Source of the DNA: Escherichia phage atuna
Sequence record: NC_049819.1
Length of the DNA: 50,732 nucleotides
Direction: 5' to 3' (one strand)
The notes below the pieces were generated by a model. That model did no database searches. It worked only from the letters and a program-made list of their open reading frames with translations, and was not told the origin of the DNA. Shown in pieces: positions 280-50,135 of the stretch (its first letter is position 1; the number at the start of each line of letters is the position of its first letter). A program made the translations under genes and the position numbers.

Positions 280-494
280 TACTTGCCCCTGATCTCAATA
301 GCTTTTTGAATATCACCTTTTTCGATCGCCTCATGGAATTTTTTACTATCACGCCAGCGAAGGTAAGCGCCCCATGCACCGAATGCAGCCATTAAAACAA
401 AGCTGGCAATAGCAATGGTTAACTGCCCTGTAGCGGCGCTTGCGATAGATGAACCGCCAGATCCGGCGGTAGCTGCGTTAATAAAATCTTTCAT
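279..494 (-). CDS. Holin (pinholin-like, 71 aa)
   Basis: Small protein with weakly hydrophobic Gly/Ala/Ser-rich segment then strong TM segment [21 protein letters not shown] and charged C-terminus; stop overlaps endolysin start (TAATG); position upstream of endolysin. Confidence 0.55.
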
Positions 495-562
495 TTTTAT
501 TCTCCATATTAATTAAAGTCAATATATTGACCGCATGATAAACGCACATGGTAAAAAATTAA

Positions 563-592
563 ACAAAAAAAAGAGGCGACAAACGCCGCCCC
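563..592 (-). terminator. Putative intrinsic terminator (GC dyad followed by T8 on minus strand) between phosphoesterase gene and lysis cassette
   Basis: Plus-strand A-run 563-572 followed by GC-rich dyad gaggcgacaaacgccgcccc; stem is imperfect. Confidence 0.4.
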
Positions 593-639
593 TTTGCAAG
601 TTTTTGATTTAATTTGTCATTGATTTAAATAAAAATTCA

Positions 640-1755
640 TCAATTCATCATTTCTGGATAGTGAACAAATCGCCCGACTTCTCCATGCTCTTTGTCGTAA
701 ATGATAACCGCTGCACGGCGTCGAGATCTCCAGCCACCTCGCGCGGCGTATGCGTCTTTTGCCGCCAGGGTGCTATGCACCTCCACGATGCCAAGCGACG
801 TTTCTGTCACGGTCTGGTGATGCCAGTGCCCTACGTGCGCATACATCGTTTTTGAGTTTCCGAAGTCCTCCCGCCAATCTGACGCGCACATCATTAGCAA
901 AGTCTCCGGTTTACGCACTGTGTGCCCGTGATGGTACGCAAGGAAAGTTTTTCCGTATTGCGTGTGGTGAACAACGCGAGGAGAAACATCAACGTAAACG
1001 CGCGGCTCGTTCTCATATGCTGCCGCCATTGCTGCGCGTAGCCAAATCATTCCTGATTGGTCGTGATTCCCCTCTACGATCTGGACCTCAACATGTTTAT
1101 GCTTTAACAGCATTTTATTAATTGCGCGGCGCATTGCACGTATTGCAACGTAAACCAATTTTGCATATCGGCTATCTTGATCAAGTACGTGACCGCTTGC
1201 AGGTGTCACCGCCTCCAGGCCGTCGCTATGCAGCATATCACCACCAATCAGGATAACAGCCTTTTCGCTGTCCGGTGCGCACATCAAAGCATAGTCGATA
1301 AAGTTATTCATGACGCGCTCTGCCGTCGCAGTATCCCAATTTTCGCCGCATTCGTGCTTATGGGCCATAGCGCCTAAGTGCATGTCAAAGATCGGATACA
1401 ATGAAAGCGTTTCATTATAATTACGCTCCTGCAATGGAACTGGATCTAATCGCGGCACTTCCTCGCTAAACGCCTCCATAGCTGCGCGCATCAGTGCCTC
1501 TAATTGCTCTTTATCCTTGCTGGTTTTGGTCCACTTGAGGATTATATTTCCTTCTTTGTCAGTCATTACTGACTCACCATGAACACCAAAACCAGGCGCT
1601 CCGATGGTCGATAACTGTCCTTGCTTTGCAAGACGCGCCGCGCGACGCTCAACGCTTCTCACATTCATTCCGTACTCTTGAGCGATCTGTTTATATGTCT
1701 TACCTGCCGCCCGTTCGATCTTGAATTGCTCATCTGTAATTTTTACATTTTTCAT
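640..1755 (-). CDS. HTH domain fused to calcineurin-like metallophosphoesterase (Mre11/SbcD/PP-lambda fold)
   Basis: N-terminal HTH-like KQIAQEYGMNVRSVERRAARLAKQG; phosphoesterase motifs DMHLG, GDMLHSDG, GNHD, HHGH, GHWHH; start chosen at internal Met (MKNVK) with upstream AGGT; longer ORF to 1905 possible. Confidence 0.6.
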   Translation of the reverse strand: MKNVKITDEQFKIERAAGKTYKQIAQEYGMNVRSVERRAARLAKQGQLSTIGAPGFGVHGESVMTDKEGNIILKWTKTSKDKEQLEALMRAAMEAFSEEVPRLDPVPLQERNYNETLSLYPIFDMHLGAMAHKHECGENWDTATAERVMNNFIDYALMCAPDSEKAVILIGGDMLHSDGLEAVTPASGHVLDQDSRYAKLVYVAIRAMRRAINKMLLKHKHVEVQIVEGNHDQSGMIWLRAAMAAAYENEPRVYVDVSPRVVHHTQYGKTFLAYHHGHTVRKPETLLMMCASDWREDFGNSKTMYAHVGHWHHQTVTETSLGIVEVHSTLAAKDAYAARGGWRSRRRAAVIIYDKEHGEVGRFVHYPEMMN

Positions 1756-1849
1756 TCTGCTACCTATCTCATCACTATATGGTACATAACTGTAACAGCG
1801 ATGATAACGGGTAACGGTAGAACAAACAAGCGCCACATGATAACTATCC

Positions 1850-2092
1850 TCATTTATAATATTTGCGAGGCTCTCGGATTTTAGCCATTGCCTCTTTGAA
1901 ATCAATTTTTGTTGGAACTGCTGGAACTCTTACCATTTTTCGCGGCCTTTCCTTGAGGAAAGTCATCTTGTCGCCGCTAATTATGCTCACATCTGCAATA
2001 TCAAAGTATTGCGCGATCTTCTTTATATCGTCGGCTATTCCGAATTCTTTAGCGTGATTCCATACCGCATCTCTACCTTGCTCAACCTTCAT
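1850..2092 (-). CDS. Hypothetical protein (80 aa)
   Basis: ORF; start at internal Met MKVEQ overlapping stop of upstream small ORF (ATGA-type coupling). Confidence 0.4.
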   Translation of the reverse strand: MKVEQGRDAVWNHAKEFGIADDIKKIAQYFDIADVSIISGDKMTFLKERPRKMVRVPAVPTKIDFKEAMAKIREPRKYYK

Positions 2093-2261
2093 GCTTATAA
2101 TATGCCTCCGCTTGTTCAATTGGCGCGTGACCGTATGCAACTTTCAGTAAAAACATTGCGATCTCCCAATCAAACTGGAATCCTTCCTTTGAACCGCCAT
2201 CCACTGAACCTTTTGCTACTTCTTGAGCAAGGTTAAAAGCGCGTTTATCGAATACCACCAT
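2082..2261 (-). CDS. Hypothetical small protein (59 aa), not in supplied ORF track
   Basis: ATG preceded by GAGGAAATAAAA Shine-Dalgarno; lies directly downstream of a promoter-like motif module; translation MVVFDKRAFNLAQEVAKGSVDGG... Confidence 0.35.
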   Translation of the reverse strand: MVVFDKRAFNLAQEVAKGSVDGGSKEGFQFDWEIAMFLLKVAYGHAPIEQAEAYYKHEG

Positions 2262-2318
2262 TTTTATTTCCTCATGTTTGCTTCGTTGAAATAATTATGC
2301 CCGACACTAGGCCGGGCG

Positions 2319-2338
2319 TTTTAACAAAAAGTGCTATT
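2319..2338 (-). promoter_or_regulatory. Conserved intergenic motif copy (exact AATAGCACTTTTTGTTAAAA on minus strand) + hairpin + ATAAT
   Basis: Exact 20-mer; followed on minus strand by hairpin cgcccggcctagtgtcgggc and ATAATT 23 nt after TTGTTA. Confidence 0.55.
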
Positions 2339-2594
2339 AGTGGATCATTCCGTGCTGAAAATTCCACGAATCGACAAACTCTTGCATGTCATTTCTGATT
2401 TGTTCGTGCCATTTTTCAAGCGGGAGTTTTCTTGTCTCCTCAAAGCTCATATCTAATGCGCTTGAAAATTCCCACGGATCGCAATCAATCATCTTTTTCA
2501 CGTTAGGGTTTTTATCAAGTGCATCGCACACCATAGCGCGAAATAACAACCACTCGCCAGTTTCATTTAAATAAACGCTTCTCTCTTTTTCCAT
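2337..2594 (-). CDS. Hypothetical protein (85 aa)
   Basis: ORF with stop embedded in conserved motif. Confidence 0.45.
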   Translation of the reverse strand: MEKERSVYLNETGEWLLFRAMVCDALDKNPNVKKMIDCDPWEFSSALDMSFEETRKLPLEKWHEQIRNDMQEFVDSWNFQHGMIH

Positions 2595-2598
2595 CGTG

Positions 2599-3351
2599 TT
2601 AGCTCCGTTTGCGTGCGCGACGTTCGGTTACAGAAGGGCAAATATCGCTGATCTTAACGTATCGCGTTTTCTGCTCCTCGCCTTCTTTAAGTTTGCGCAT
2701 GACAAAAATCACGCTTCCCTTGTTGTTGCCCTGCACAGGCTCGCCAGTCAATCCAGACACAAAGGCGATTCTTCCGGTGCGGGAGTATTCTACTCCACCC
2801 TCTTCGTAAACCTCGCCAGTGATCCAGATGATTTCAGCCGCGTTTTTCTGCGCCTCATAAAACCATGCTGTAGAGTTGTCTGCTGGCAACAAAACATCAA
2901 TTTGGTTGTTGTGCTCCATTTGCTCAATTGCTTTCTTGATAAATGGAGTTGGGTTGCTGTACGGCGGGTTAAGCCACACGTGCTTGTTGCTACCCCACCA
3001 ACGCTTTAAGCAGTTTGTCTCCTTGCTATAGAACTTCTCGCAAACTGCGTTTTCCTGGCTTGCTGCCGCGTCGAGATCGTATTCACCAAATTCTGATTCC
3101 ATCCACTCCACGATCTCTTGAGGTGTGCTCCACATATCGCGCACAACGTCCGGCGTAGTGCTTCCAGCGTATCGGTTTCCGCTTACCTTATAATATTGAT
3201 TTGGCTTTACTGCCTGGTAATGGCCTCCAGTTGCAAGGGCATTCCCTATAAACGTTTCTCTCTCCAACTGCTCAAAGCTAACGAATGCGTTATGGGTGTC
3301 TTTATCTAAAATATCTTTAGCCATTTTCATTTCTCCGCTATTAAAAGCCAT
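2599..3351 (-). CDS. dam: DNA N6-adenine methyltransferase (phage Dam-type)
   Basis: WLNPPYS catalytic motif (N/DPPY) in 250-aa protein; position next to helicase/VRR-NUC as in T1-like phages; GATC specificity is inferred, not seen. Confidence 0.7.
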   Translation of the reverse strand: MAFNSGEMKMAKDILDKDTHNAFVSFEQLERETFIGNALATGGHYQAVKPNQYYKVSGNRYAGSTTPDVVRDMWSTPQEIVEWMESEFGEYDLDAAASQENAVCEKFYSKETNCLKRWWGSNKHVWLNPPYSNPTPFIKKAIEQMEHNNQIDVLLPADNSTAWFYEAQKNAAEIIWITGEVYEEGGVEYSRTGRIAFVSGLTGEPVQGNNKGSVIFVMRKLKEGEEQKTRYVKISDICPSVTERRARKRS

Positions 3352-3389
3352 CTCGTGTTATTGAATTATGGCGCAATCCATCGCGCCAG

Positions 3390-3409
3390 TTTTAACAAAA
3401 AGTGCTATT
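3390..3409 (-). promoter_or_regulatory. Conserved intergenic motif copy (exact) + hairpin + ATAAT upstream of methyltransferase gene
   Basis: Exact 20-mer; minus-strand hairpin ctggcgcgatggattgcgcc then ATAATT at 23-nt spacing. Confidence 0.55.
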
Positions 3410-3824
3410 TAAGCATGTATTCAATAGCCAACTTAAACTGATTGAATCCGTAGGCTACCGCAGCGAATCCTCCTAAGCTGCGAACGCGACGCAAAAAAGC
3501 CTTTTGTTCATCGCTGACTGGTGATGCTTTCCCCTTGCCTGATTTATTCACTCGTTTGATCTCAATCGCTGCAAAGGGGTATTTTCCGTTTAAACCAATC
3601 AGGATGATGAAATCGCTTACTCCCTTAACCAAGCCGGACTGCTGATCAATCATCGCCGTTGCTTTAGACTTCTCATTCTCGTTTACCGTATGCCACGCCA
3701 GCAAATAAGGATGAGCATAAGTCAACCACTGAAAACTATCTATCTGGTGATTAACTTCCCTTCTCGTGTCGGTTGGATCCCTTTCGTAAAACTCAAGATA
3801 ATCGCCTTTATCAGTTATAGCCAT
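3405..3824 (-). CDS. VRR-NUC domain nuclease
   Basis: AIEIKRVNKSGKGKASPVSDEQKAFLRRVRSLGGFAAVAYGF resembles VRR-NUC E-x-K core; 139 aa. Confidence 0.55.
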   Translation of the reverse strand: MAITDKGDYLEFYERDPTDTRREVNHQIDSFQWLTYAHPYLLAWHTVNENEKSKATAMIDQQSGLVKGVSDFIILIGLNGKYPFAAIEIKRVNKSGKGKASPVSDEQKAFLRRVRSLGGFAAVAYGFNQFKLAIEYMLK

Positions 3825-5821
3825 TAAACAAACTCCCGTTTTGCAATGTTATCCTCACCTTTGCCGTTTTTGCGATGCGTTACGCGTACAGGAGGCATGA
3901 TGTGATGAGCGTATGACATTATTTTACGCGCATTTCTATAGCTCGCCACCATACCAGCAATCTTGCGATCCGGTATGTGCTGCAATGCTATTTTTCTCCA
4001 TATCGTCCGGCAAATGTTGCTTTCTGACTCAGGGAAAAATCTTTCGTATGCCTTGAACGTGTCGCCGTTGGCCTCAAGCTCATAGCAAAAAACAATTCCT
4101 TTCTGGTTTTTCGTCATATCAACGCGGAAAGATTTAACGTTGCACCAATCGTTTTTGGTGTAGTGCTTGCCGCTTAACTTCTCGTTAGGATCGACAAGAG
4201 AAATATCGCAACAACGGCAAACTCTCGCCACTACGTCGTTTTTTGTTCCGCAACCGCGCTTGATTATCTTTTTCGTTCTCGGATCTACCTGGTCCTCGCA
4301 AATTCTGTAAGTCCAAAAATGCTCGCATCTCTTCCCGTTATCGTCTACGTGCATACATCGGCGAGCGTAAAAGCTGTTTAGCGTTCCACATATCGGACAA
4401 GTCTTAGGCTCTTTCCCGTTTGTAAATCTCTTTTGGAATTGCGCTTGCTCAAGGATTGGATCGAAATACAAATCCCCTAACTCATCCATAGTACCAGCAA
4501 AATCCAATACAAGATGGTCTTTTTTCTTGAATCCCTGCTCAATGTGCCATTGCTTAAGCAGTCGCATACCGCGCCCCAAAAGCTGGATAAGCAATGTTAG
4601 AGATCCTATCTTTCTCAGTATTACAGAAGTATCCCAAAACGGAACGTTAACGCCAGTGGTAAGCGCCTGTACCTGGAAGATGTATTTTACTTTTCCCTCG
4701 TATGCCTCCCTCAGCCACTCTTTACGCTGATTGTCTCCAGTCTTGCCAGTTATGATCCTGTATTCAACGCCTGGCGGCAGTGCGGCGGCGGCCTCCTTGC
4801 AGTGTCTTTCCCCTGCGCATGTAACTAAAACTCCGTTCCTGTCTTTGCATATCTCATGGACTTTAGCCATGATTTTCTGTGTCATTGTTGCGTCTTGATG
4901 GATCTTTTCTTCCATCTTGCGCAATGTTTTAGCGTCAAAGTCTGAAACGCCATCCTCGCTACTGGCTTCGAACTCTGAAAGGTCATACCCCAGGTCGCCT
5001 ACGTCGCCGAAATTTGTTGGCACTACAGAACCGAATTTGATTAAGTAGTTTGTGTCTATGTTAGTCACCTGCTCACGCCAGAATCCCTTTTTGTTCTTAT
5101 CTTCAACCAGTATTGGAACCACGCCGCGAAATTCAGATCCAGTCATACCGAATATTCGCAATTCGTGCCCGTATGCCTCGCGACACCTGCGCATCATTTC
5201 CATGATTATTACCGTGTACTGTGTGCGTCCTGTTCCGAACATTGGATCGCCATTGGAATCAAATTGCTGTTCTTCTCCAATCAGTACAGGCAAATCCTTC
5301 TTAGTGGTCATCTGCTGGTAAGATTCATTATTTTCTATCGCGTCGGCGAGATCCTCCCAATCCACCTGGTGACATTCATCAATACCGATAACGTGCGGAA
5401 CATAATCACCTAACGACTTAAACAATCCGTTTACCACAGTGCCCTCAGAACCGACTACGATCGGAAAGTATGCGCTTTTTGTTTTCAGTCCGGCGCAATA
5501 GATTGAGTTTGGCACGCCAAGATTGCTGATCTCTTCTGAATCCTGATCAACAATTTCAGCCTGACGAGCAAGCACCATCATTTTCAATCCCATTTTGCGG
5601 CATTGCGCCGCAACCATCGCAAACATCAATGTTTTGCCAGCCGACACAGAAGCCTTAACAAAGAAAGGATGCTCATAGTTTTTCATGCGCTTTGCGATCT
5701 CGGCATACGCAACGCACTGATAAGGATAAGGCACTATATTGCCAACCGTGAATCGCTCTTGGATGCTTTTTATTACTGCCTCGCCTAACGCTGATATTTG
5801 TTTTTCGATATTTGGAATCAT
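3824..5821 (-). CDS. ATP-dependent SF2 helicase (DEAD/DEAH-like)
   Basis: Walker A SVSAGKT and motif II IDECHQ in 665-aa protein. Confidence 0.8.
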   Translation of the reverse strand: MIPNIEKQISALGEAVIKSIQERFTVGNIVPYPYQCVAYAEIAKRMKNYEHPFFVKASVSAGKTLMFAMVAAQCRKMGLKMMVLARQAEIVDQDSEEISNLGVPNSIYCAGLKTKSAYFPIVVGSEGTVVNGLFKSLGDYVPHVIGIDECHQVDWEDLADAIENNESYQQMTTKKDLPVLIGEEQQFDSNGDPMFGTGRTQYTVIIMEMMRRCREAYGHELRIFGMTGSEFRGVVPILVEDKNKKGFWREQVTNIDTNYLIKFGSVVPTNFGDVGDLGYDLSEFEASSEDGVSDFDAKTLRKMEEKIHQDATMTQKIMAKVHEICKDRNGVLVTCAGERHCKEAAAALPPGVEYRIITGKTGDNQRKEWLREAYEGKVKYIFQVQALTTGVNVPFWDTSVILRKIGSLTLLIQLLGRGMRLLKQWHIEQGFKKKDHLVLDFAGTMDELGDLYFDPILEQAQFQKRFTNGKEPKTCPICGTLNSFYARRCMHVDDNGKRCEHFWTYRICEDQVDPRTKKIIKRGCGTKNDVVARVCRCCDISLVDPNEKLSGKHYTKNDWCNVKSFRVDMTKNQKGIVFCYELEANGDTFKAYERFFPESESNICRTIWRKIALQHIPDRKIAGMVASYRNARKIMSYAHHIMPPVRVTHRKNGKGEDNIAKREFV

Positions 5822-5878
5822 CTTAAACCTTTAAAAAATGCCATTTGGAGTATATAATAGACTCATTACAATAAACTG

Positions 5879-5898
5879 TTTTAACAAAAAATGCTATG
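5879..5898 (-). promoter_or_regulatory. Conserved motif variant (TTTTAACAAAAAATGCTATG on plus) in divergent helicase / HTH-gene intergenic region
   Basis: Minus-strand reading gives motif then TATTAT 22 nt after TTGTTA, upstream of helicase; on plus strand the motif abuts the SD (GAGG) of gene 5909. Confidence 0.5.
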
Positions 5899-5908
5899 AG
5901 GTGACTAG

Positions 5909-6385
5909 ATGAAAGATGCACGAATTGCAGTATCTACTGGTGAGATCGACAAGCGCACTATTAACGGTAACAACGGAACGCGACGAGGTAAAGACAAAAA
6001 GCCACGAAAACACCGAACCGGATTTCTTATCCTGCGAGATGAGGTAAAAGCAAGCCTGAAATCTCGCCTTGACATTCTGATCGAGTATTACGGCGGTGTT
6101 CCTGCTATGGCCCGACGTCTGCGCGTATCTCAGCAAGTCGTTAACCAGTGGCGAAAGCGTGGTATGATTTCAGCCGCTGGAGCACAAAAGGTGCATAACG
6201 ACTACAAATATAATGGGTGCAAAGGATACCGCGCATCATTTTGTCGTCCAGATCTGCGGTTTGATTCTAACGGCAAGCCTCTTACTACCCGTTGCGACAA
6301 ATACGAAATGTTGCGCGTAGTCAAAAATTCAGACTACGAACCAGGCGGACGATTCTACAAAGGTGATAACAGCACGAATAGCTAA
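5909..6385 (+). CDS. HTH DNA-binding protein (Cro/YdaS-like motif)
   Basis: VPAMARRLRVSQQVVNQWRKRGMIS helix-turn-helix-like segment; SD gagg upstream. Confidence 0.5.
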   Translation: MKDARIAVSTGEIDKRTINGNNGTRRGKDKKPRKHRTGFLILRDEVKASLKSRLDILIEYYGGVPAMARRLRVSQQVVNQWRKRGMISAAGAQKVHNDYKYNGCKGYRASFCRPDLRFDSNGKPLTTRCDKYEMLRVVKNSDYEPGGRFYKGDNSTNS

Positions 6386-6392
6386 TGATAAG

Positions 6393-6428
6393 GCCCAGCG
6401 AAATGATAATATTTGCTGGGCTTTTTTA
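6393..6428 (+). terminator. Hairpin + T-run between HTH gene and primase-like gene
   Basis: gcccagcg...tgctgggc dyad followed by TTTTTTATT, then SD gagg and ATG 6441. Confidence 0.45.
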
Positions 6429-6440
6429 TTGAGGTTTGCC

Positions 6441-7370
6441 ATGAATACTGAAAACTTTATGACCTATCAGAAAGAAGATGTTTTACCATATATGAAGGGG
6501 TTATGGCGTGAAGCACTACAAAGCATTTGCGGACTGCATAGCGATGTTTTCAACAAAAAGCATCAGCCTTGCCCACACTGCGGCGGCAAGGATCGTTTTA
6601 GATGGACTGATAAGCTAAATGAAGAGGGCGACGGCGGCGCTATCTGCAACGTATGCGGTAACGACACGGGGATCGGTTGGTTAATGAAATTAACTGGCGA
6701 ACCTTACAGCGAGGCCATCAATATTTTGGGTCGCTTCCTCGGAAAAGTGCCGCAGGATTACAGGATCAGAGCAAACAAACGCGCTTCGCGTTCTTCTGGT
6801 TACTCGTTCGGGAAACAGGCAAGTCATGAATGCTGCGAAAAAGTGATGGCAAAAACATTAAAATTCGATCGCACACCTTTAAGCGTTTATGAGGGGATAT
6901 ATCCGACGGAAGGTTGTCATTATGATTGCGGCGTCAAGGATGGTCGATACATTCACGCGCTACCTTGTCACTTGGTGCATGATGACGGGCTTGATGATGA
7001 AATGTGTAACGTGCTTTTCATTGATGAGGATGGAAAGGATTGGTTTTTAGCTCGCGACTACACGCGCGGATCTGTTGTTAAAACAGGTAGCACAGATAAG
7101 ACGATCTATTTGTGCCTTGATTGGGTTGATTCCCAGCATGTTCATTTATCAACTGGTCAAGAGGTGTGGGCTTGCTTTACTCCTTCAAATCTTGAAATGG
7201 TTGCGCATAGATATAAAGGAGAAAGAAGAATGCGAGTAGTCTGCCGGAAAGATGATCGTGATGTGATAATCGCGGCAGAGGAAAGAGGTCTTGACATAAT
7301 GATGCCTGTTGACGATAATTTTAAACAGGGCGTAGAAAGAAAACTCTACAAGCCCGAATCACTACTATAA
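6441..7370 (+). CDS. Putative DNA primase-like protein with N-terminal zinc ribbon
   Basis: CPHCGG...CNVCG zinc-ribbon; start moved from 6363 to ATG 6441 (SD gagg; upstream region forms terminator hairpin); position between helicase and tail fibre. Confidence 0.5.
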   Translation: MNTENFMTYQKEDVLPYMKGLWREALQSICGLHSDVFNKKHQPCPHCGGKDRFRWTDKLNEEGDGGAICNVCGNDTGIGWLMKLTGEPYSEAINILGRFLGKVPQDYRIRANKRASRSSGYSFGKQASHECCEKVMAKTLKFDRTPLSVYEGIYPTEGCHYDCGVKDGRYIHALPCHLVHDDGLDDEMCNVLFIDEDGKDWFLARDYTRGSVVKTGSTDKTIYLCLDWVDSQHVHLSTGQEVWACFTPSNLEMVAHRYKGERRMRVVCRKDDRDVIIAAEERGLDIMMPVDDNFKQGVERKLYKPESLL

Positions 7371-7386
7371 AACTCCGCTAGTATTG

Positions 7387-7411: not shown

Positions 7412-7442
7412 GCATTTGAAAATGCTATTATCTGAATTGTCA

Positions 7443-7460: not shown

Positions 7461-7476
7461 TAGGAGGATTTTACAA

Positions 7477-17197: not shown

Positions 17198-17674
17198 CTA
17201 CTTTCCGTGGTTTATGTGGAATTTGTTTAAAACTTCAATCTCTATCCTCTTTTCTGCCGCATCCTGAAATGAATCAAAGTAAAATTCATGCCTAACACCA
17301 TCAATCTTTGCTCTTGCAATCCATTTTCCGCGACTAAAGTTTACTCCAGTAATTCCCGTCTTGCTGTTCCTGTAAAGCGACTTATTCTTGTTGTTAACAC
17401 TCATTCTAACAAGTCTTAAGTTTGAAATATTGTCGTTCATTGTGTTGTGATCTATGTGATCAACTTGCATTCCATGCGGTATTTCTCCATTATGAATTTC
17501 CCAAACTATCCTGCTCCTGTAGTATCTTTCTCCATCAATTGATATTCTAACCCTTTCTCCACTCTTCTTGCTTTTGCTTACGCTTCCTGCCTCACTTCCT
17601 TTCTTTATCCTTCTTCCTACGTCTACAGCCCAAAATAACTTACCGTCATTATAATAAAAAATATCACGCCACAT
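17198..17674 (-). CDS. HNH homing endonuclease with AP2 DNA-binding domain
   Basis: HIDHNTMNDNISNLRLV (HNH) and GITGVNFSRGKWIARAKIDGVRHEFYFDSFQDAAEKR (AP2-like); ATG 17674 after AAGGAGGTG. Confidence 0.8.
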   Translation of the reverse strand: MWRDIFYYNDGKLFWAVDVGRRIKKGSEAGSVSKSKKSGERVRISIDGERYYRSRIVWEIHNGEIPHGMQVDHIDHNTMNDNISNLRLVRMSVNNKNKSLYRNSKTGITGVNFSRGKWIARAKIDGVRHEFYFDSFQDAAEKRIEIEVLNKFHINHGK

Positions 17675-43556: not shown

Positions 43557-43557
43557 A

Positions 43558-43770: not shown

Positions 43771-43782
43771 GGAGTAATAACC

Positions 43783-44046
43783 ATGAAAATTAATGCACCT
43801 ATTCCAGTTAAGCGCAAAGCACGTTTGCTCAATAACGGATGTTACGCCCTGCGGCCTGCATTTAAGGATCGCACATTTCCGGTTATCGTTAACGTGTCTC
43901 ACGTAAGCCGTAGCGGAAACCTGGTATTCGTTAAAGGTGAAGATCTGACGGCTCTTGGATTCTATGGCGGTGTTCACGGCGAAGCGCTCGGATTCTGGCT
44001 TGTGGATCCGTTAACTGGAGAGCGTGAAATCGAATTCCTGGACTAA
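43783..44046 (+). CDS. Hypothetical early protein (87 aa)
   Basis: SD TAAGGAG upstream. Confidence 0.45.
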   Translation: MKINAPIPVKRKARLLNNGCYALRPAFKDRTFPVIVNVSHVSRSGNLVFVKGEDLTALGFYGGVHGEALGFWLVDPLTGEREIEFLD

Positions 44047-44065
44047 ATAGCACTTTTTGTTAAAA
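44046..44065 (+). promoter_or_regulatory. Conserved intergenic motif copy (exact) + hairpin with TGGTATAGT + leader CATCGAAACGAAAC
   Basis: Exact 20-mer starting in the stop codon of upstream gene; TATAGT 22 nt after TTGTTA. Confidence 0.6.
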
Positions 44066-44123
44066 ACGATGCGCTGCTGATTGGTATAGTAAGCGCATCG
44101 AAACGAAACAGAGGATTTTCAAA

Positions 44124-44351
44124 ATGTCAGTAGTCGCCAACCAGAAAGCAATCGACCAGACAAACGACAAACGTTTTGCGATTTTCATCACTCGCAACCA
44201 TAAGCGCTACGCTGTTAAGGCTATCCCTGGCGGTTATGCTACATACATGGAATTGAGCGGCGGCTGGTATCGTTGTGAGAATCTCTCAAACTTCCTGGTA
44301 TGGAATGCGGAATTCCAGGGCTTTGATGATATTTCTTCAATCACTTACTAA
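44124..44351 (+). CDS. Hypothetical early protein (75 aa)
   Basis: ORF with SD cagagg. Confidence 0.45.
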   Translation: MSVVANQKAIDQTNDKRFAIFITRNHKRYAVKAIPGGYATYMELSGGWYRCENLSNFLVWNAEFQGFDDISSITY

Positions 44352-44365
44352 CAGGAGATCAAAAA

Positions 44366-44773
44366 ATGGTATCGCAGTCTCTTAAATTCATTGGCGAAAA
44401 CACCAGTCACGCATGGACTTTCACAAAAGGCGCTGAATACGCCGTATTGCGCGATGAAAAATATGGCGATGAGTATGTTCTTGATGATTATCGCGAACCT
44501 CTTTACATCTCGCGTGACGATGATAACCGATTCTATGGCACTGGCTTTGAAAGTTACGCTTTCCGACCAGTATTTGAAGAGGAATTACGGCCTATTTACC
44601 GCGTAATTGCAACTAATCGCGAGAATGGACGGGCCACCCTTTGTTATGCAGGCCATTTTAAAAAGAGAGCGCAAAATTGCTACAATGGCCTGAAAGATAA
44701 AGAATCAATTATTCGCGATCATCGTGTGACGCTCCAGGAGTTGCGGCCAATCACTATCGACACCACGGAATAA
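44366..44773 (+). CDS. Hypothetical early protein (135 aa)
   Basis: ORF with SD caggag. Confidence 0.5.
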   Translation: MVSQSLKFIGENTSHAWTFTKGAEYAVLRDEKYGDEYVLDDYREPLYISRDDDNRFYGTGFESYAFRPVFEEELRPIYRVIATNRENGRATLCYAGHFKKRAQNCYNGLKDKESIIRDHRVTLQELRPITIDTTE

Positions 44774-44792
44774 AAAGCACTTTTTGTTAAAA
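44773..44792 (+). promoter_or_regulatory. Motif variant (AAAAGCACTTTTTGTTAAAA) + hairpin with TGGTATATT + leader CATCGACAACAAAC
   Basis: 19/20 match, same architecture as 44046. Confidence 0.55.
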
Positions 44793-44848
44793 GTCGTATG
44801 CGGTAAGTTGGTATATTTACCGCATCGACAACAAACGAGGATTTAAAG

Positions 44849-45046
44849 ATGGAAAATCAGGTTGATGTTAAAGTTGTTAAGCGCGACAAGTCTCACGAAA
44901 AAGGTTTGTTTAAGAAAGGTGCTGAAATCACCATTGACCTTGATGATATGGAGGCGTACCACTCAGGGCTAACTTGGAACGTGCGCAAATGTGAAAACGG
45001 CCTGTTCAAGTTAAATGGCTTTGAAACATACATGGAGATCATTTAA
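44849..45046 (+). CDS. Hypothetical early protein (65 aa)
   Basis: ORF. Confidence 0.45.
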   Translation: MENQVDVKVVKRDKSHEKGLFKKGAEITIDLDDMEAYHSGLTWNVRKCENGLFKLNGFETYMEII

Positions 45047-45327
45047 TGGCATACGAAAAGAATGATTTCAATAGCGCAAGAGAAAAAATCAAGGCGGCGC
45101 GAATTAAACAGCGCGCCTTTAGATTCTGGCTTGACTATCGCGATCTAAGAAAAGAGATGGATACGCTTATTAAGACTGGTAGCGCATTCTGCTCTAATAG
45201 AACGGTTTGGCGAAATATGAATGCGCAGTACGGCCAGGGTAAAATTCGTGTATTTGGCGGCGCTGTTGATGCTTATGTATTTAGCGCAACAAAGGCTGTA
45301 AGTTTTAACGTAACTGGGATCGCATAA
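45046..45327 (+). CDS. Hypothetical early protein (93 aa)
   Basis: ORF, TAATG coupling. Confidence 0.45.
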   Translation: MAYEKNDFNSAREKIKAARIKQRAFRFWLDYRDLRKEMDTLIKTGSAFCSNRTVWRNMNAQYGQGKIRVFGGAVDAYVFSATKAVSFNVTGIA

Positions 45328-45539
45328 TGGCAAAGCAATTAAAACTTAAATGCGTAGAAACTTATAACTCAATTTGGAAATTTACGCGCGGAAAAGAATA
45401 TCCACTAATGGGAAATCTCAAAGAAGATCCTCATGTAATTTCAGATAATGGTCTTCACCTTTATTTAATGGAATACAACGATGGGTATATTGGCGCTGGT
45501 GTTACAGGTCATAAATTTAAGCTGAAAAATAAGAAATGA
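45327..45539 (+). CDS. Hypothetical early protein (70 aa)
   Basis: ORF, TAATG coupling. Confidence 0.45.
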   Translation: MAKQLKLKCVETYNSIWKFTRGKEYPLMGNLKEDPHVISDNGLHLYLMEYNDGYIGAGVTGHKFKLKNKK

Positions 45540-45647
45540 GGCTATTTATTTTCAAAAACGCTTGGATGGTGGCGGTTGCAAATGACCATTACGGCGGCGA
45601 CGGAAAAAGAGCGCCACGTCATTCATATTTCAATTGAGGATATTTAA

Positions 45648-45875
45648 ATGAAAGCAAAAGTTTTAAACATTATGGCAACTATTGACGCTCATCACCGCGT
45701 GGCTGTAAAACTTGATAAGTCCTGCGGAATTAGCCAAATCACTATCACCGAGGGCAAAGGCGGCTATCTTATTGGTATCCATCCAGGCGGTAAGGTGCGC
45801 AAATACAATAAAGATCAGGTAAAAGAATTACTGGAAGAAAACGCTTTCTATATTCAAAGTTGGCGCTCTCTTTAA
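45648..45875 (+). CDS. Hypothetical early protein (75 aa)
   Basis: ORF. Confidence 0.45.
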   Translation: MKAKVLNIMATIDAHHRVAVKLDKSCGISQITITEGKGGYLIGIHPGGKVRKYNKDQVKELLEENAFYIQSWRSL

Positions 45876-45883
45876 TTAATCTG

Positions 45884-45904
45884 GCGGCGTTTTGCCGCCT
45901 TTTA
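45884..45904 (+). terminator. Hairpin + T-run (possible attenuating terminator)
   Basis: ggcggcgttttgccgcc followed by TTTT, then SD gaggtgg. Confidence 0.45.
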
Positions 45905-45917
45905 AATGAGGTGGAAA

Positions 45918-46034
45918 ATGATAGATAAAGCTATTGATTTCTTTTTTTATTCGATTATTGGCGCGGTTGGTTTTTTGGTTACTGCTGCTGGCCTGGCTAT
46001 TATCTTGGCTGTTATTAAGGGAGTTATGCGATGA
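45918..46034 (+). CDS. Small membrane peptide (38 aa), not in ORF track
   Basis: ATG after GAGGTGG; hydrophobic FFFYSIIGAVGFLVTAAGLAIILAVI; stop overlaps next start (ATGA). Confidence 0.3.
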   Translation: MIDKAIDFFFYSIIGAVGFLVTAAGLAIILAVIKGVMR

Positions 46035-46255
46035 GTCAGGACGGTTTTTTTGAGCGCCTTCAAATGGCAGAAGATGCCGGACTAAATAAAGAGGCGGCGC
46101 TTGAAGTGGCATATAAAATTAAGACTCTTGATGAGGCTTTAGGTGATATGGATATGGATCTTGAATCAAGCGCAATATTTGCAGATCCCACTATGATTGT
46201 TAATGATTGTGGATGCGATTTCGATCCTAGTTGTCCGCGCTGTTTTCCGTTTTGA
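46031..46255 (+). CDS. Small acidic protein (74 aa)
   Basis: Asp/Glu-rich, C-terminal Cys cluster CGCDFDPSCPRC; coupled to downstream methyltransferase-like gene. Confidence 0.45.
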   Translation: MSQDGFFERLQMAEDAGLNKEAALEVAYKIKTLDEALGDMDMDLESSAIFADPTMIVNDCGCDFDPSCPRCFPF

Positions 46256-46265
46256 GGTAATGACG

Positions 46266-46976
46266 ATGTATAAAGGTTTAATATTCTCCCTATTTGATGG
46301 ATCTGGTAAAGCCGTTAAAGATTGGGCTGATAATGGATATAAGTGCATTTGCTTTAATGCTGACGGTGGCGATCACGGTGATTACCAGTCAGTGCGCATA
46401 CAGCATGAGAATATCGAATACGTTAACGTCTGGATTGATGAAAGATTTTACCACCGCGCGCGCTGGGAGGAATGGGGCATTCCTGACTTTATTATGGCAT
46501 TTCCGCCGTGCACCGACCTTGCAAATAGCGGATCTCGCCATTGGGCCAAAAAACGCCTTGAGAATCCATCGTTCCAGGATGAGGCCGCCGACACTTGCAG
46601 AATCGCGGCTGATATAGCTGATTATTTCGGTGTTCCTTACATGATCGAAAATCCGGTTGGCAAGTTGTCAACGTTATGGCGAAAGCCTGATTATACGTTC
46701 CATCCGTGCGATTACGCTGGCTATCTGCCGGAAGATGATAAACATCCCGACTTCCCTGATATTATTCCGGCACGGGATCGCTATTTTAAGAAAACGTGCC
46801 TCTGGACTGGCAACGGCTTTGTTATTCCTCCTCGCGCTTTAATCCTGCCGAAAGAGGAAGACAAAGATAATCCAGGCTGGGCCAAAACTGGCGGTAAGTC
46901 ATCGCGCACAAAGATGATCCGCTCCCTCACTCCGCGCGGCTTTGCTCGCGCCGTCTTTGAGTCAAACTCAAAATAG
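46266..46976 (+). CDS. C5-cytosine methyltransferase-like protein (compact, about 237 aa)
   Basis: Motif I IFSLFDGSG, motif IV-like FPPC (catalytic Cys), motif VI-like ENPVG; no obvious large target-recognition domain; start ATG 46266 chosen for SD spacing. Confidence 0.55.
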   Translation: MYKGLIFSLFDGSGKAVKDWADNGYKCICFNADGGDHGDYQSVRIQHENIEYVNVWIDERFYHRARWEEWGIPDFIMAFPPCTDLANSGSRHWAKKRLENPSFQDEAADTCRIAADIADYFGVPYMIENPVGKLSTLWRKPDYTFHPCDYAGYLPEDDKHPDFPDIIPARDRYFKKTCLWTGNGFVIPPRALILPKEEDKDNPGWAKTGGKSSRTKMIRSLTPRGFARAVFESNSK

Positions 46977-46991
46977 CACTTTTTGTTAAAA
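46972..46991 (+). promoter_or_regulatory. Conserved intergenic motif copy (exact) + hairpin + CATAAT + leader CACATCGAACAAAC
   Basis: Exact 20-mer overlapping stop of upstream gene; ATAAT 23 nt after TTGTTA. Confidence 0.6.
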
Positions 46992-47045
46992 GCCAGGTGT
47001 AAAAACCTGGCATAATCACATCGAACAAACAAAGGAGATCTGATC

Positions 47046-47432
47046 ATGAATGTTATCTGTAATGAAACCAACGTATTGATGAAAGGCCGTTTTAAAACGG
47101 TTTATCAGAAGATTGCAGGAAGTGATGATGTGATCGAGGTGGAAGAGTTCCAGGTTAAGACGCTTGTTAAGGGTAGCCGCTGGCTTCCAGCAAACCGAGA
47201 TGATTACCGCGCCATTAACACAAAAACCGTTCTTTGCACGTTTGTAGATCATAACATGCCGTGCAAAAAGCACTTTAAGCAGGGCAAGCGATACCAGATC
47301 GAGAAAGGGCGACCGCTTGGAAGCGTTGCGGGTTATGTTTTTGATGAGTGCGGCGACCGCTGGAACCTGTACCGTGAAGAGGTCGGATTCTCTGCTGGCG
47401 GCTGTTATCTGTTTGAGGGCAAATATCTGTGA
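47046..47432 (+). CDS. Hypothetical early protein (128 aa)
   Basis: ORF with SD aaggag. Confidence 0.45.
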   Translation: MNVICNETNVLMKGRFKTVYQKIAGSDDVIEVEEFQVKTLVKGSRWLPANRDDYRAINTKTVLCTFVDHNMPCKKHFKQGKRYQIEKGRPLGSVAGYVFDECGDRWNLYREEVGFSAGGCYLFEGKYL

Positions 47433-47650
47433 TAAACAGTGAAAACCGTTACAAAGTAACGCATTCTACCACAAAGACTTTCAAGCCTGGCGATATAGTC
47501 AGGCCCATCAAAAAAACGGCGGTAGGTTGGCTGATTGGTTTTTCATATCATAAGGCGCTTTACTTTACGTTTAAGGATGGGATTACAGGAGAATGCTACA
47601 GCGACCGCCAGCCTGATCGACTTCTGGTTGCAATAGAGCGGATCAAATAG
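47429..47650 (+). CDS. Hypothetical early protein (73 aa)
   Basis: ORF, ATGA coupling. Confidence 0.45.
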   Translation: MINSENRYKVTHSTTKTFKPGDIVRPIKKTAVGWLIGFSYHKALYFTFKDGITGECYSDRQPDRLLVAIERIK

Positions 47651-47665
47651 CACTTTTTGACAAAA
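47646..47665 (+). promoter_or_regulatory. Motif variant (AATAGCACTTTTTGACAAAA) + hairpin upstream of P-loop NTPase operon
   Basis: Variant creates exact TTGACA; hairpin tgggccgttaaaatttacggccca follows. Confidence 0.55.
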
Positions 47666-47718
47666 CGGGGTAGTATTGGGCCGTTAAAATTTACGGCCCA
47701 CAAAGGAGAAGCTAACGA

Positions 47719-49299
47719 ATGTTTTCATTAGAAACGAACAAATTAACTCCACAGCAAATAATCGCTATGGCTGAAAGCCAGAACCTTTCACCAGTTCGCG
47801 TATCAATTCAGGCTAACGGCTATCGCCAGTCGTCCAGCTTTTGGGGCGACGTGAAGGATGTAAATAGCGGTCACGATCGCTACCCCGTAATTTCTCTTGG
47901 TAATGATATTGATGTTGTCGGCAAGCTATCACGCAGTATTGCGCGATCCGTTCAATTCCCTGAATCATCGGCTTACATGCACTTTATCGGCTGCATTTCT
48001 GCCGCCATGCTTGGACGCTTTACGGTTGACTATCACGGGACCGATCAGCCGACTGCGCTTTACGTAGTTACAAGCCAGCCGCCGTCAACTGGTAAATCTG
48101 CGATCAACAGTATGGCTATTGCTCCGATGATTGCGGAAGTTGAGAAGATCAACGAGCAACGCCGCAAGGAAAGAAAGAAAATACAGGCAAAGTTGGCAGG
48201 TCTTGCAAAGGAGATGAAAAGCGAAAGATCAGGCGCTGATATGGAATCTCTATACCAGGAAAAAGAGGATCTGGAGGAGAAGCTGGAAAAGATGTGTGAT
48301 ATAACTTTCCCTGTTTCAGATACAACTCCAGAAGGCTTGGCAAAAATCAACAACAAGCAAGGTAACTTTGCCGTAATATCTGACGAAGCAACAAGTATTA
48401 ACAGTCTGTTAGGCTTGACCTATGCCAATAGCGAAAGGAAGACTAACAGTGAGCTAGTGCTTAAGGCGTGGGATAATGGTCACGTATCAATTGCCCGTGC
48501 TAATGCTGACAATAACATGAGTTTTCGCGCGCTTGGATGTATGAGCGTTATAGCCCAGGATGAAACGATAAGCGGAATCATGGATGCTGGATCTCGCGGT
48601 ATCGGTGTGAGTGAGCGCTTTTTGTTGGTCCGTGAGGAATCATTCTTAGGCCGTCGCTCATTCATTGATGAAAATGGTGATTCTACCTATGAGGCGGTGG
48701 ATCCTGAATTGAAGGCCCAATATTATCAATTGGTGCATAACATCATGAGCGAATCAAATATATCGCTGAAAATAAGCCGTTCAGCTATGCGAGTGCTCAA
48801 CATTGCTCGCCAGGATATGGAACCGCATCTTGCAGACGGCGGAAAGTATTCTCATACAATGTTACGCGGTGCGCTGGGTAAAATGGATAAACAGGTGATC
48901 AGGCTTGCTTCCGTCCTGCATGTTATCCGCAACTGGTTTAATCCTGCCGGATACCCGCAGAAGTCGAAAGAGATCGACGTGGAAACAATGCAAGAGGCGC
49001 TGATCATGTTTCAGGAATTGAGCAAAACATACATTAGCGCCGCCAATGCTTCTGGTTATGCTGGTGATGATGCTGAAATGGGTAAATTGATTGAATTGAT
49101 CACTAGACACGGCAAGGCTAATAAAGGGATTCTGAATATCCGCGCCCTGTACGAATCAGCGAGAAAGGTAAAACCTTTCGTTGGTCAGGCTGGCGTAATG
49201 AAGAGGATAGAGGGGCACTTGCTGCCAATGCTGGAAGAAAGAAATTATGTTTGCGTGATTAATGGTGTTATTTTTGTCAATCCAATACTGCTGGGATGA
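47719..49299 (+). CDS. P-loop NTPase-like protein of unknown function (526 aa)
   Basis: Degenerate Walker A PPSTGKS and Walker B-like FAVISDEAT; internal coiled-coil; largest early-arm gene. Confidence 0.55.
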   Translation: MFSLETNKLTPQQIIAMAESQNLSPVRVSIQANGYRQSSSFWGDVKDVNSGHDRYPVISLGNDIDVVGKLSRSIARSVQFPESSAYMHFIGCISAAMLGRFTVDYHGTDQPTALYVVTSQPPSTGKSAINSMAIAPMIAEVEKINEQRRKERKKIQAKLAGLAKEMKSERSGADMESLYQEKEDLEEKLEKMCDITFPVSDTTPEGLAKINNKQGNFAVISDEATSINSLLGLTYANSERKTNSELVLKAWDNGHVSIARANADNNMSFRALGCMSVIAQDETISGIMDAGSRGIGVSERFLLVREESFLGRRSFIDENGDSTYEAVDPELKAQYYQLVHNIMSESNISLKISRSAMRVLNIARQDMEPHLADGGKYSHTMLRGALGKMDKQVIRLASVLHVIRNWFNPAGYPQKSKEIDVETMQEALIMFQELSKTYISAANASGYAGDDAEMGKLIELITRHGKANKGILNIRALYESARKVKPFVGQAGVMKRIEGHLLPMLEERNYVCVINGVIFVNPILLG

Positions 49300-49691
49300 T
49301 TATGTTTTTGCTTGATCTGTATAAATGGTGTGAGTCATACGACTGGTTTAACAGGCAGCACATAGCCAAATTTATCTATCAGCATAGAGAATGTGAGCGG
49401 CTCGCACGGGCCGCCGGACTTACTCCGCGAATGTTCTCCAGCCTTACATCTAAGGAATTTTGCGCAAGAATGATGACGGCTGGCTATATAGATGGGGTCT
49501 GCGGTAAATACTGGTCCAAAGGATCGTCAAAGCGGCCTTTCGGATTCGAATTGTATAGCCTGGATGGTATGCGCAACGACTGGGTCAGGGATATGGCTAG
49601 AATAGGGGAGATGGGCGATGATGAATTGTTCCAGGCAAAAGCTAATAGACAAGATCTTGAAGCACTGCGCCGTAAATTCAATATCACATGA
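49296..49691 (+). CDS. Hypothetical protein (131 aa), coupled to P-loop NTPase gene
   Basis: Start overlaps upstream stop (ATGA). Confidence 0.45.
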   Translation: MIMFLLDLYKWCESYDWFNRQHIAKFIYQHRECERLARAAGLTPRMFSSLTSKEFCARMMTAGYIDGVCGKYWSKGSSKRPFGFELYSLDGMRNDWVRDMARIGEMGDDELFQAKANRQDLEALRRKFNIT

Positions 49692-49807
49692 GGATTTTAT
49701 TCATGCTTTACTTACGCTACTTTATTCAGATATGCGCGCTTTTAGCACCACTGAACATGTTTTATGCAATGATGATGGTGTATTACTGGTTACGGTAAAG
49801 CGTATGG

Positions 49808-49827
49808 AATAGCATTTTTTGTTAAAA
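49808..49827 (+). promoter_or_regulatory. Motif variant (AATAGCATTTTTTGTTAAAA) + hairpin + leader CATCGAAACGAAAT
   Basis: Hairpin cgcccggcctagtgtcgggt is the inverted counterpart of the hairpin at 2300-2318. Confidence 0.55.
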
Positions 49828-49888
49828 CGCCCGGCCTAGTGTCGGGTATATTTGTTTCATCGAAACGAAATAACCAAAAGGTAAAATT

Positions 49889-50113
49889 ATGTCCAGCAAG
49901 TTTTTAGTAGTTCGCGTATATAATCATGACAACGGATCTTCTGCTGAAATCCCGACAATTTATGACAGGGATTTTGGATGGAGTGAGCAATCGGCTGTTG
50001 AAAATGAGCGCAAGATTGCAGAAATGTATGGCGACACTTGCAGCATTGAAGTAAGGCAGTACGACGAATCGAACAAGCCAACAAACGAAACTCATATGTG
50101 GCCCGACGCATAA
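49889..50113 (+). CDS. Hypothetical early protein (74 aa)
   Basis: ORF with SD aaaagg; last gene of rightward arm. Confidence 0.45.
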   Translation: MSSKFLVVRVYNHDNGSSAEIPTIYDRDFGWSEQSAVENERKIAEMYGDTCSIEVRQYDESNKPTNETHMWPDA

Positions 50114-50135
50114 AAATAAAGGAGGCATTAAGCCT
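50103..50135. terminator. Bidirectional terminator between rightward early arm and spanin gene
   Basis: A-run, aaggaggcattaagcctcctt hairpin, T-run. Confidence 0.7.

Follow-up and report, generated by a model that had tools for sequence, protein, structure and literature searches.

Layout of the lysis cassette across the window junction

The window, that is, the whole 50,732-nucleotide stretch of Escherichia phage atuna DNA (NC_049819.1) that was analysed, carries three overlapping minus-strand genes, for a holin, an endolysin and a spanin, which span the junction formed when the end of the window is joined to its start. These genes and the signals that flank them are the following:

494..279, minus strand: holin gene, 71 aa, T1 gp13 family
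279..1 joined to 50732..50520, minus strand: endolysin gene, whole, 163 aa
1..279, minus strand: endolysin gene, 5' part, codons 1-93, GH24/T4-lysozyme-like and R21-type; runs on across the junction
50520..50732, minus strand: endolysin gene, 3' part, codons 94-163 and TGA stop
50523..50128, minus strand: predicted unimolecular spanin gene, 131 aa, T1 gp11 family
502..505, minus strand: Shine-Dalgarno GGAG, 7 nt 5' of the holin ATG, read directly
570..595, minus strand: rho-independent terminator-like hairpin, AAAGGGGCGGCGTTTGTCGCCTCTTT followed by a T-run; 11-pair stem, 6 GC
50118..50140, no strand assigned: bidirectional terminator hairpin, AAAGGAGGC-TTAAT-GCCTCCTTT

The original prediction had placed three lysis genes here, wrapped around the junction and coupled by overlapping stop and start codons, and all these features were found, on the minus strand; the database matches of the genes are far outside what chance would give. 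Read on the sequence, the holin TAA and the endolysin ATG overlap by one base in AAGTAATGAG (TAATG), and the endolysin TGA and the spanin ATG share an ATGA overlap in AAATGATGAAG. The spanin ORF call also yields a 137-aa form starting with TTG at 50541; relatives (tonijn gp35) are annotated with the 131-aa form, whose ATG at 50523 overlaps the endolysin stop.

The wrap-around at the junction is genuine and not an artefact, because 79 phage records hold the joined 1383 nt in one piece, as a single alignment, vB_EcoD_Poky at 99.1% identity and tonijn at 98.6%. In the window, a Warwickvirus-like Drexlerviridae genome is present in circularly permuted form; since this circle was opened within the endolysin (lysozyme) gene, the record splits the cassette, and for the same reason linear gene callers will miss or truncate this gene. 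In vB_EcoD_Poky, tonijn, tiwna, MikeNSara, JLBYU19 and others, which show 98-99% nucleotide identity over the whole cassette, it is not split by the record start, and there is otherwise no substantial difference. The annotations of these near-identical phages include 'holin', 'endolysin', 'Rz-like spanin' and 'putative unimolecular spanin'.

The hairpin at 570..595 forms the upstream boundary of the cassette, after the exonuclease/phosphoesterase gene (640..1905), and its position matches that of the annotated T1 terminator after T1 gene 16. The hairpin at 50118..50140, which holds the spanin stop codon in its loop, is common to the spanin gene and to a convergent 74-aa ORF (49889..50113, plus strand); the corresponding site in T1 likewise bears an annotated terminator, which overlaps the end of gene 11. 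A promoter scan from the upstream terminator to the holin gave no convincing candidate: sigma-70-like matches were fewer than the shuffle expectation, and the only match near the holin, at 522..493, was rejected as a holin promoter on this count and because it overlaps the start codon. Scans of the window for tRNAs and Rfam families found nothing.

The T1 cassette (gp13, gp12 and gp11; NC_005833, 42878-43982) has the same gene order, overlapping stop/start coupling, exonuclease flank and terminators. Identity to T1 gp13, gp12 and gp11 is 55% (71 of 71 residues, E=4e-29), 65% and 46% (126 of 131 residues, E=1e-36), respectively, and the products are of similar length (71, 162 and 133 aa in T1; 71, 163 and 131 aa in the window). 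The two phages differ in subfamily, the window being Tempevirinae/Warwickvirus-like and T1 belonging to Tunavirinae. They also differ in the upstream part of the cassette: T1 has an HNH endonuclease gene and the small ST14 (SH3/DUF7244) gene between exonuclease and holin, whereas in the window the holin directly follows the exonuclease and an ST14 homologue is absent (tblastn of the window, nothing better than E=0.29).

Spanin and endolysin

The elements of the spanin and of the endolysin that bear on their assignment are:

50467..50523, minus strand: spanin lipoprotein signal peptide and lipobox LSGC (Cys19), with Ser at +2 (outer-membrane sorting); the lipobox itself lies at 50478..50467
50152..50202, minus strand: predicted C-terminal TMD of the spanin, residues 108-124; uncharged run, mean Kyte-Doolittle 3.04, then basic tail REKKKEA
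211..261, minus strand: candidate SAR segment, endolysin residues 7-23; 17 uncharged residues after the basic n-region MSIKNR
154..201, minus strand: catalytic triad codons, E-8aa-D-5aa-T; E27 at 201..199, D36 at 174..172, T42 at 156..154

The 131-aa protein, found in 1097 phage records, matched the PHROG Rz-like spanin family (phrog_1804, 1.2e-46). Kongari et al. (2018) cluster proteins into the T1 gp11 u-spanin family from 40% identity to a member upwards, over 40% or more of the length; by its identity to T1 gp11, the protein belongs there. There are no Cys residues between Cys19 and the TMD, and hence none in the periplasmic part. The LSGC lipobox, Ser at +2, lack of periplasmic Cys, C-terminal TMD and basic tail are common to T1 gp11, TLS RzlA, KP34 gp54 and tonijn gp35. 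T1 gp11, whose lipobox is identical to that of the window spanin, complements lambda RzRz1 and disrupts the outer membrane (PMC6139136). Among ORFs of at least 30 aa in the spanin region, no other lipobox was present that would indicate an embedded or separate i-/o-spanin pair. The lipobox, the C-terminal anchor, the T1 u-spanin architecture and the lack of a separate pair had all been proposed for this protein beforehand, and each was borne out. Every architectural feature of T1 gp11 being present, the assignment of the protein as a predicted u-spanin is solid.

The endolysin matched Pfam Phage_lysozyme (PF00959, E=5.3e-39) and the PHROG endolysin family (2.9e-55), and aligned over its full length with R21 (3hde, 6.5e-47) and with RrrD (4zpu). 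It is a true homologue of these phage 21 and DLP12 enzymes (PDB 3hde, 3hdf and 4zpu), to which it is about 50% identical; it shares with them the E-8-D-5-T triad, an N-terminal segment without Cys, and four Cys in the enzyme body. Residues 2-24 lie opposite the SAR region of R21 in the alignment, across a gap of 6 residues, the window segment being shorter by that length. The candidate SAR segment is 53% Gly/Ala/Ser/Thr and ends 4 residues before the catalytic Glu27. None of 38 endolysin homologues departs from E27, D36 and T42, and each has an n-region with 1-3 Lys/Arg followed by 14-19 uncharged residues. Residues 1-43 contain no Cys, and the segment is without Cys in 36 of the 38 homologues, unlike the P1 Lyz disulfide-isomerisation type. 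An AlphaFold model (pLDDT 87), built on P0027, which is 98% identical to the window endolysin, has a helix at 14-27 that runs into Glu27; its TM score is 0.80 against full-length R21/RrrD (3hde/4zpu) and 0.60 against truncated R21. The weakly hydrophobic, Ala/Gly-rich N-terminus that the original prediction read as SAR-type thus lies within a homology to R21 that includes the N-terminal segment, and the assignment as a putative SAR endolysin is well supported.

Both assignments were weighed against a rival reading. The endolysin might be a soluble periplasmic enzyme that is exported by a cleavable Sec signal peptide, cut after A15-V16-A17, and kept in check otherwise than by tethering. With 17 residues here and 14-15 in some homologues, the stretch is nearer in length to the h-region of a signal peptide than to the usual TMD, and it holds small-x-small motifs, among them AVA|L, which signal peptidase I could accept. 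This reading is nevertheless very unlikely: the stretch aligns with the R21 SAR region, which has an AIA-type motif as well. R21, whose structures 3hde and 3hdf come from Sun and co-workers in 2009, reportedly stays uncleaved in experiments. The predicted first helix of the fold leads straight into Glu27, so that half of this helix would be lost by a cut at 17/18; the model is also nearer to full-length than to truncated R21, and close homologues have been labelled SAR endolysins by independent annotators. For the 131-aa protein, several GenBank records say just 'lipoprotein' or 'hypothetical protein', and a weak PHROG match to Cor (1.8e-5, residues 2-60) together with weak NCBIfam lipoprotein matches could suggest another phage lipoprotein, such as a Cor-like superinfection-exclusion protein. 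We consider this extremely improbable, as the weak matches are confined to the lipoprotein signal region whereas the strong match is to the Rz-like spanin PHROG, the protein is related over 126 residues to a T1 gp11 that replaces lambda RzRz1, a C-terminal TMD is present, and the gene is the last of a lysis cassette.

The holin and its topology

The holin has two uncharged segments:

426..485, minus strand: holin residues 4-23; no charged residue and 80% Gly/Ala/Ser/Thr; candidate for a first TMD that can be released, or for an N-terminal segment in the periplasm
360..422, minus strand: holin residues 25-45; one clear TMD, then charged cytoplasmic tail RWRDSKK...

The protein matched the PHROG holin family over residues 1-71 (phrog_2877, 3.8e-32) and is present in 824 phage records, in 52 of which it is 100% identical. 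PF27028 is assigned to all 26 holin homologues in a precomputed table; our own Pfam and NCBIfam scan, run with a Pfam copy that does not contain PF27028, gave nothing above threshold (best DUF3262, 18.9 bits for a cutoff of 27). When 1.84 billion representatives were searched with a profile of the holin alignment, no more than 8 clusters came back, which leaves no distant relatives able to inform the topology. One of the eight, P0153, was left out; it has a basic, unrelated N-terminus and looks like a frameshifted call. Residues F38, G39, G42, A43, Y44, L45, R46 and W47 are invariant.

Compared with S21-68/EssD of phage 21 and DLP12, the window holin is alike in its 71 aa, small-residue-rich first segment, stronger second segment and charged C-tail. 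It is unlike S21 in that its segments are joined without a polar loop and in that homology was not detectable: hhalign of the holin family against EssD gave a probability of 0.2% (E=0.27). The holin is therefore not an S21 family member, and any likeness is a functional analogy. In the S21-68 paradigm, a pinholin makes small heptameric channels of about 2 nm, through which a cytoplasmic endolysin is not released. The window holin gene is translationally coupled to that of the adjacent R21 homologue, a genetic pairing with a SAR-type endolysin.

The number of membrane passages is where the interpretation of the cassette is weakest, residues 25-45 being the only convincing TMD. The original prediction had called the holin pinholin-like, with a Gly/Ala/Ser-rich first segment and a stronger second one. 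This composition was recovered, but two TMDs were not supported, either by AlphaFold or by the note in the TLS GenBank record, and homology to S21 is lacking as well; the hedge in 'pinholin-like' is therefore appropriate. A possible, though on balance unlikely, reading is that the holin is not a class II two-TMD pinholin and has a single TMD, N-out/C-in from insertion, residues 4-23 being a conserved periplasmic N-terminal region. Such a holin would still serve a SAR endolysin just by depolarising the membrane, whether it makes a pin or a large hole. With Hessa-scale values that serve relative comparison only, the sum was 0.45 for the 19-residue window of TMD 25-45 (mean Kyte-Doolittle 1.89) and 8.55 for segment 4-23, where large hydrophobic residues number 3 of 20; one segment alone thus attains TMD-like hydrophobicity. 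Gln24 is the sole separator of the two segments, and in homologues a Glu stands at this boundary (TLS ...TGEFLL, P0150 ...SGELIV). AlphaFold gave a continuous helix from 2 to 58 and no hairpin, at a low confidence (pLDDT 68.5, pTM 0.38; pLDDT 53-54 over residues 1-20), so that the model is read only as failing to support a hairpin. The records of two relatives agree on one passage, TLS with '1 TMD predicted using DeepTMHMM' and T1 with 'single transmembrane domain'. On the other side, the validated S21-type TMD1 is about equally weakly hydrophobic (7.72 on the same relative scale), so that the weakness of segment 4-23 does not exclude transient insertion. This segment is moreover strongly conserved and nearly always without charge across the family, which suggests more than a linker, and Young-lab annotations place the T1-type holin in class II, N-in/C-in (PMC4559738).

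A model for lysis and its place among known systems

Gene structure, homology, conserved motifs and fold are what the analysis establishes. The three genes are very probably the orthologues of T1 genes 13, 12 and 11 and make up a lysis cassette that works in three steps, in a T1-like coliphage (Drexlerviridae, Warwickvirus-type). In such a cassette, the 163-aa GH24 muramidase would be exported by the host Sec system, using its N-terminal basic region and 17-residue Ala/Gly-rich segment, and kept inactive and tethered to the inner membrane. The tether would include residues needed for the first helix of the lysozyme fold, as it ends 4 residues before Glu27. Meanwhile, the 71-aa holin would build up in the inner membrane via TMD 25-45, its segment 4-23 probably acting like S21 TMD1, as an inhibitory stretch that is found out of the bilayer once the holin is active. 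At a set time, holin lesions would collapse the proton-motive force; depolarisation would free the N-terminal segment of the endolysin, which would refold onto the enzyme body, position Glu27 and activate peptidoglycan cleavage. The spanin would carry a lipid at Cys19, with Ser at +2 directing it to the outer membrane, while its C-terminal TMD stayed in the inner membrane; it would thus bridge the periplasm, passing through the mesh of murein. Loss of the murein would let it collapse and fuse or disrupt both membranes, releasing the virions. Export, tethering, release, pore size and membrane fusion are in this scheme inferred from homologues.

T1-type (T1gp11-family) cassettes have been described as pinholin, SAR endolysin and u-spanin (PMC6139136, PMC4559738, PMC11447400, PMC13164509), and the general pinholin/SAR mechanism has been reviewed (PMC9636201). 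No direct experiment on any holin or endolysin of the T1 type came to light in the literature, where the pinholin and SAR status of these proteins is bioinformatic. Phage 21 and DLP12 have a two-component embedded spanin (rzpD/rzoD), in contrast to the predicted u-spanin of the window. The lambda Rz/Rz1 pair has the same role and the same last place in the cassette, a TMD and a lipoprotein anchor linking inner and outer membrane; here both anchors are carried by one polypeptide, and an o-spanin ORF, whether embedded or separate, is absent. The periplasmic domain of the T1 gp11 family is predicted to be beta-rich, with no periplasmic Cys, and not coiled-coil as in lambda Rz/Rz1 (PMC6139136).

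In conclusion, the cassette is already known, being the standard lysis module of T1-like phages, and dozens of deposited genomes contain it at 98-100% identity; its importance beyond correct annotation is slight. Across the T1 family, the labels 'pinholin' and 'SAR' rest on analogy and prediction, and anyone employing these proteins, for instance in lysis modules or as nanopores, does well to regard the topology of the holin as unverified. We suggest, tentatively and with rather low confidence, that the T1-type holin may be a distinct single-TMD (N-out/C-in) class, whose conserved, uncharged, Gly/Ala/Ser/Thr-rich N-terminal segment works periplasmically or at the interface, and whose partner is a SAR segment of 14-19 residues, the shortest functional one known. 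If this is true, the Drexlerviridae would possess a natural 'minimal' depolarisation-triggered lysis system, with a topology unlike that of S21/R21.

Gene organization and genomic context

When the end of the window was joined to its start, three consecutive minus-strand ORFs were found, bracketed by two hairpins:

494..279, minus strand: holin ORF, 71 aa
279..1 and 50732..50520, minus strand: endolysin ORF, 163 aa, spanning the junction
50523..50128, minus strand: spanin ORF, 131 aa
595..570, minus strand: terminator-like hairpin, 3' of the upstream exonuclease gene
50118..50140, both strands: bidirectional hairpin with the spanin stop codon in its loop

A Shine-Dalgarno GGAG lies 7 nt 5' of the holin ATG. 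The holin/endolysin boundary reads AAGTAATGAG, in which TAA and ATG have one base in common, and the endolysin/spanin boundary reads AAATGATGAAG, an ATGA overlap. The original prediction of a cassette that runs from 494 to 50128 across the junction, with genes coupled by overlapping stop and start codons, is borne out by these ORFs. A promoter scan revealed no convincing candidate in the interval from the 595..570 terminator to the holin ATG (494); the sole sigma-70-like match near the holin (TTGACT-18-AAAAAT, 493..522, minus strand) was rejected as its promoter because it overlaps the start codon. The cassette may be transcribed by read-through or from a phage-specific promoter. Outside the cassette, a 74-aa ORF (49889..50113, plus strand), the counterpart of the conserved hypothetical protein tonijn gp36, runs towards the spanin gene and has the terminator at 50118..50140 in common with it.

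The joined 1383 nt aligned as one uninterrupted stretch in 79 phage records (99.1% identity to vB_EcoD_Poky; 98.6% to tonijn, classified as Drexlerviridae; Tempevirinae; Warwickvirus), and over the window's first 25 kb the identity to Escherichia phage MikeNSara is 98%. These alignments indicate that the window is a complete, circularly permuted T1-like genome, opened within the endolysin gene. The junction (1/50732) falls at endolysin codon 93/94 and linear calling gives only a 70-aa C-terminal fragment (50520..50732); linear gene callers lose the N-terminal part, which holds both the catalytic triad and the SAR segment.

Gene order and overlapping boundaries are those of T1 genes 13 (holin), 12 (endolysin) and 11 (Rz-like spanin), and in T1, too, the end of gene 11 overlaps a terminator. 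Identities to the T1 proteins are 55% for the holin (gp13, E=4e-29), 65% for the endolysin (gp12, E=3e-80) and 46% for the spanin (gp11, E=1e-36). PHROG gives matching assignments (holin, 3.8e-32; endolysin, 2.9e-55; Rz-like spanin, 1.2e-46), and by tblastn 824 phage records contain the holin family and 1097 the spanin family. The small SH3/DUF7244 gene of T1, ST14, has lately been proposed as auxiliary in Drexlerviridae lysis modules (PMC13164509). In contrast to T1, no ST14 homologue was found in the window by tblastn (best E=0.29), and the holin gene comes after the exonuclease gene with only the terminator between them (495..640); the HNH gene ST15, neighbouring in T1, has its homologue elsewhere (17204..17671).

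T1-type holin and spanin genes were also observed, with a DNA-level match to the window, in about 21 records named 'Campylobacter phage', host C. jejuni (for example MG065665.1, Campylobacter phage A131, 31670-31882, holin 73% identical). A T1-like enterobacterial cassette is unexpected in such phages and points to wrongly labelled hosts or coliphage contaminants.

Endolysin and spanin

The endolysin belongs to the GH24 phage lysozymes (Pfam, 5.3e-39) and is homologous over its full length to phage 21 R21 (3hde, 6.5e-47) and DLP12 RrrD (4zpu); residues 2-24 align, but for a gap of 6 residues, with the SAR region of R21. E27, D36 and T42 (E-8-D-5-T pattern) are invariant in 38 homologues (54-98% identity), all of which have an n-region with 1-3 Lys/Arg and then 14-19 uncharged residues; in most of them, as in the window protein, this stretch stops 4 residues short of the catalytic Glu. 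P0027, 98% identical to the window endolysin, was modelled in its place with AlphaFold (mean pLDDT 87; <50 for residues 1-11). Residues 14-27 form a helix running into Glu27, and the fit to full-length R21 and RrrD (TM 0.80) is closer than that to truncated R21 (TM 0.60), so that the hydrophobic segment, as modelled, belongs with its C-terminal half to the lysozyme fold. In the work of Sun et al. of 2009, the source of 3hde and 3hdf, the membrane-held R21 SAR segment reportedly displaces the catalytic Glu until release and refolding; the predicted endolysin fold fits this mechanism. C44, C63, C124 and C158 (148..150, 91..93, 50640..50642 and 50538..50540) are invariant in 38/38 aligned homologues and present in R21 and RrrD; they could form disulfides in a periplasmic enzyme.

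The spanin carries the lipobox LSGC (Cys19), as does T1 gp11 (PMC6139136), with Ser at +2, an 88-residue periplasmic part without cysteine, and a very hydrophobic 17-residue C-terminal segment followed by a basic tail. T1 gp11, TLS RzlA, KP34 gp54 and tonijn gp35 all share these features. The window spanin thus has every architectural feature of the u-spanin family, whose prototype, T1 gp11, restores lysis in a lambda RzRz1 defect (PMC6139136). The lipobox and C-terminal membrane anchor had been correctly recognized from sequence, as had the absence of a separate i-/o-spanin pair: no other ORF of at least 30 aa in the region has a lipobox. Klebsiella phage KP34, a podophage (Autographiviridae), encodes a 43% identical u-spanin of the T1 gp11 family in a different gene order (spanin, holin, endolysin; 1204-2444), beside an unrelated 83-aa holin; therefore, the u-spanin travels independently of the T1-type holin.

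Two other assignments were weighed. The endolysin segment is short for a TMD and contains an AVA|L motif, as a cleavable signal might; however, its modelled role in the lysozyme fold argues against cleavage there, so that the segment would probably be retained and a cleavable signal is improbable. The 131-aa product gave weak Cor and lipoprotein profile matches, but these are confined to its signal region, and a lipoprotein other than a spanin is extremely unlikely.

Holin topology

In the holin, Gly, Ala, Ser and Thr make up 80% of residues 4-23, and a clear TMD spans residues 25-45. Across 26 close homologues and 8 clusters retrieved among 1.84 billion representatives, segment 4-23 shows strong conservation and hardly ever carries a charge. 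Its Hessa-type sum is 8.55 versus 7.72 for TMD1 of EssD, the S21-type pinholin of DLP12; on this scale, used for comparison only, both are weakly hydrophobic to about the same degree. The main alternative, which concerns topology class only, is a single TMD from the outset. Only 3/20 residues of segment 4-23 are large hydrophobics, Gln24 alone separates the segments, and the low-confidence AlphaFold model is one unbroken helix (2-58). In the re-annotated TLS record the homologue is called 'pinholin class 2', yet with the note '1 TMD predicted using DeepTMHMM', and the T1 record reads 'single transmembrane domain'. Given the conservation, lack of charge and EssD-like hydrophobicity of segment 4-23, we consider this alternative possible but rather unlikely. 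Of the predicted pinholin-like arrangement, the small-residue first segment and stronger second one stand, whereas the few large hydrophobics, the lone Gln24, the one-helix model and the record notes speak against a true two-TMD hairpin. No homology of the holin family to the S21 family was detected (hhalign probability 0.2%). The holin gene has no second in-frame start able to give an antiholin, unlike that of TLS, where one is described (PMC11447400). By either insertion route, the predicted end state is the active S21-68 topology, with a single TMD, the N-terminal segment lying outside the bilayer and the charged C-tail inside.

Proposed lysis pathway

All but two T1 gp11-family members lie in cassettes with a pinholin and a SAR endolysin (Kongari et al., 2018; PMC6139136); the TLS re-annotation (PMC11447400) and the KanT1 paper (PMC13164509) likewise report this combination, and close relatives carry the GenBank labels 'putative unimolecular spanin' and 'SAR endolysin'. 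The cassette, seen directly in its gene structure, homology, motifs and fold, is real and already known, and the original prediction, which interpreted it correctly, re-derived the published reading from sequence alone. Export, tethering, pore size and fusion would follow T1 gp11 and R21/S21 by analogy. Lysis triggered by depolarisation, a general mechanism treated in PMC9636201, is best supported: the endolysin would be exported by Sec and stay membrane-tethered and inactive; the holin would build up and collapse the proton-motive force; the endolysin N-terminal segment, once freed, would refold and murein would be degraded; and, once murein ceases to hold it apart, the u-spanin would disrupt the outer membrane.
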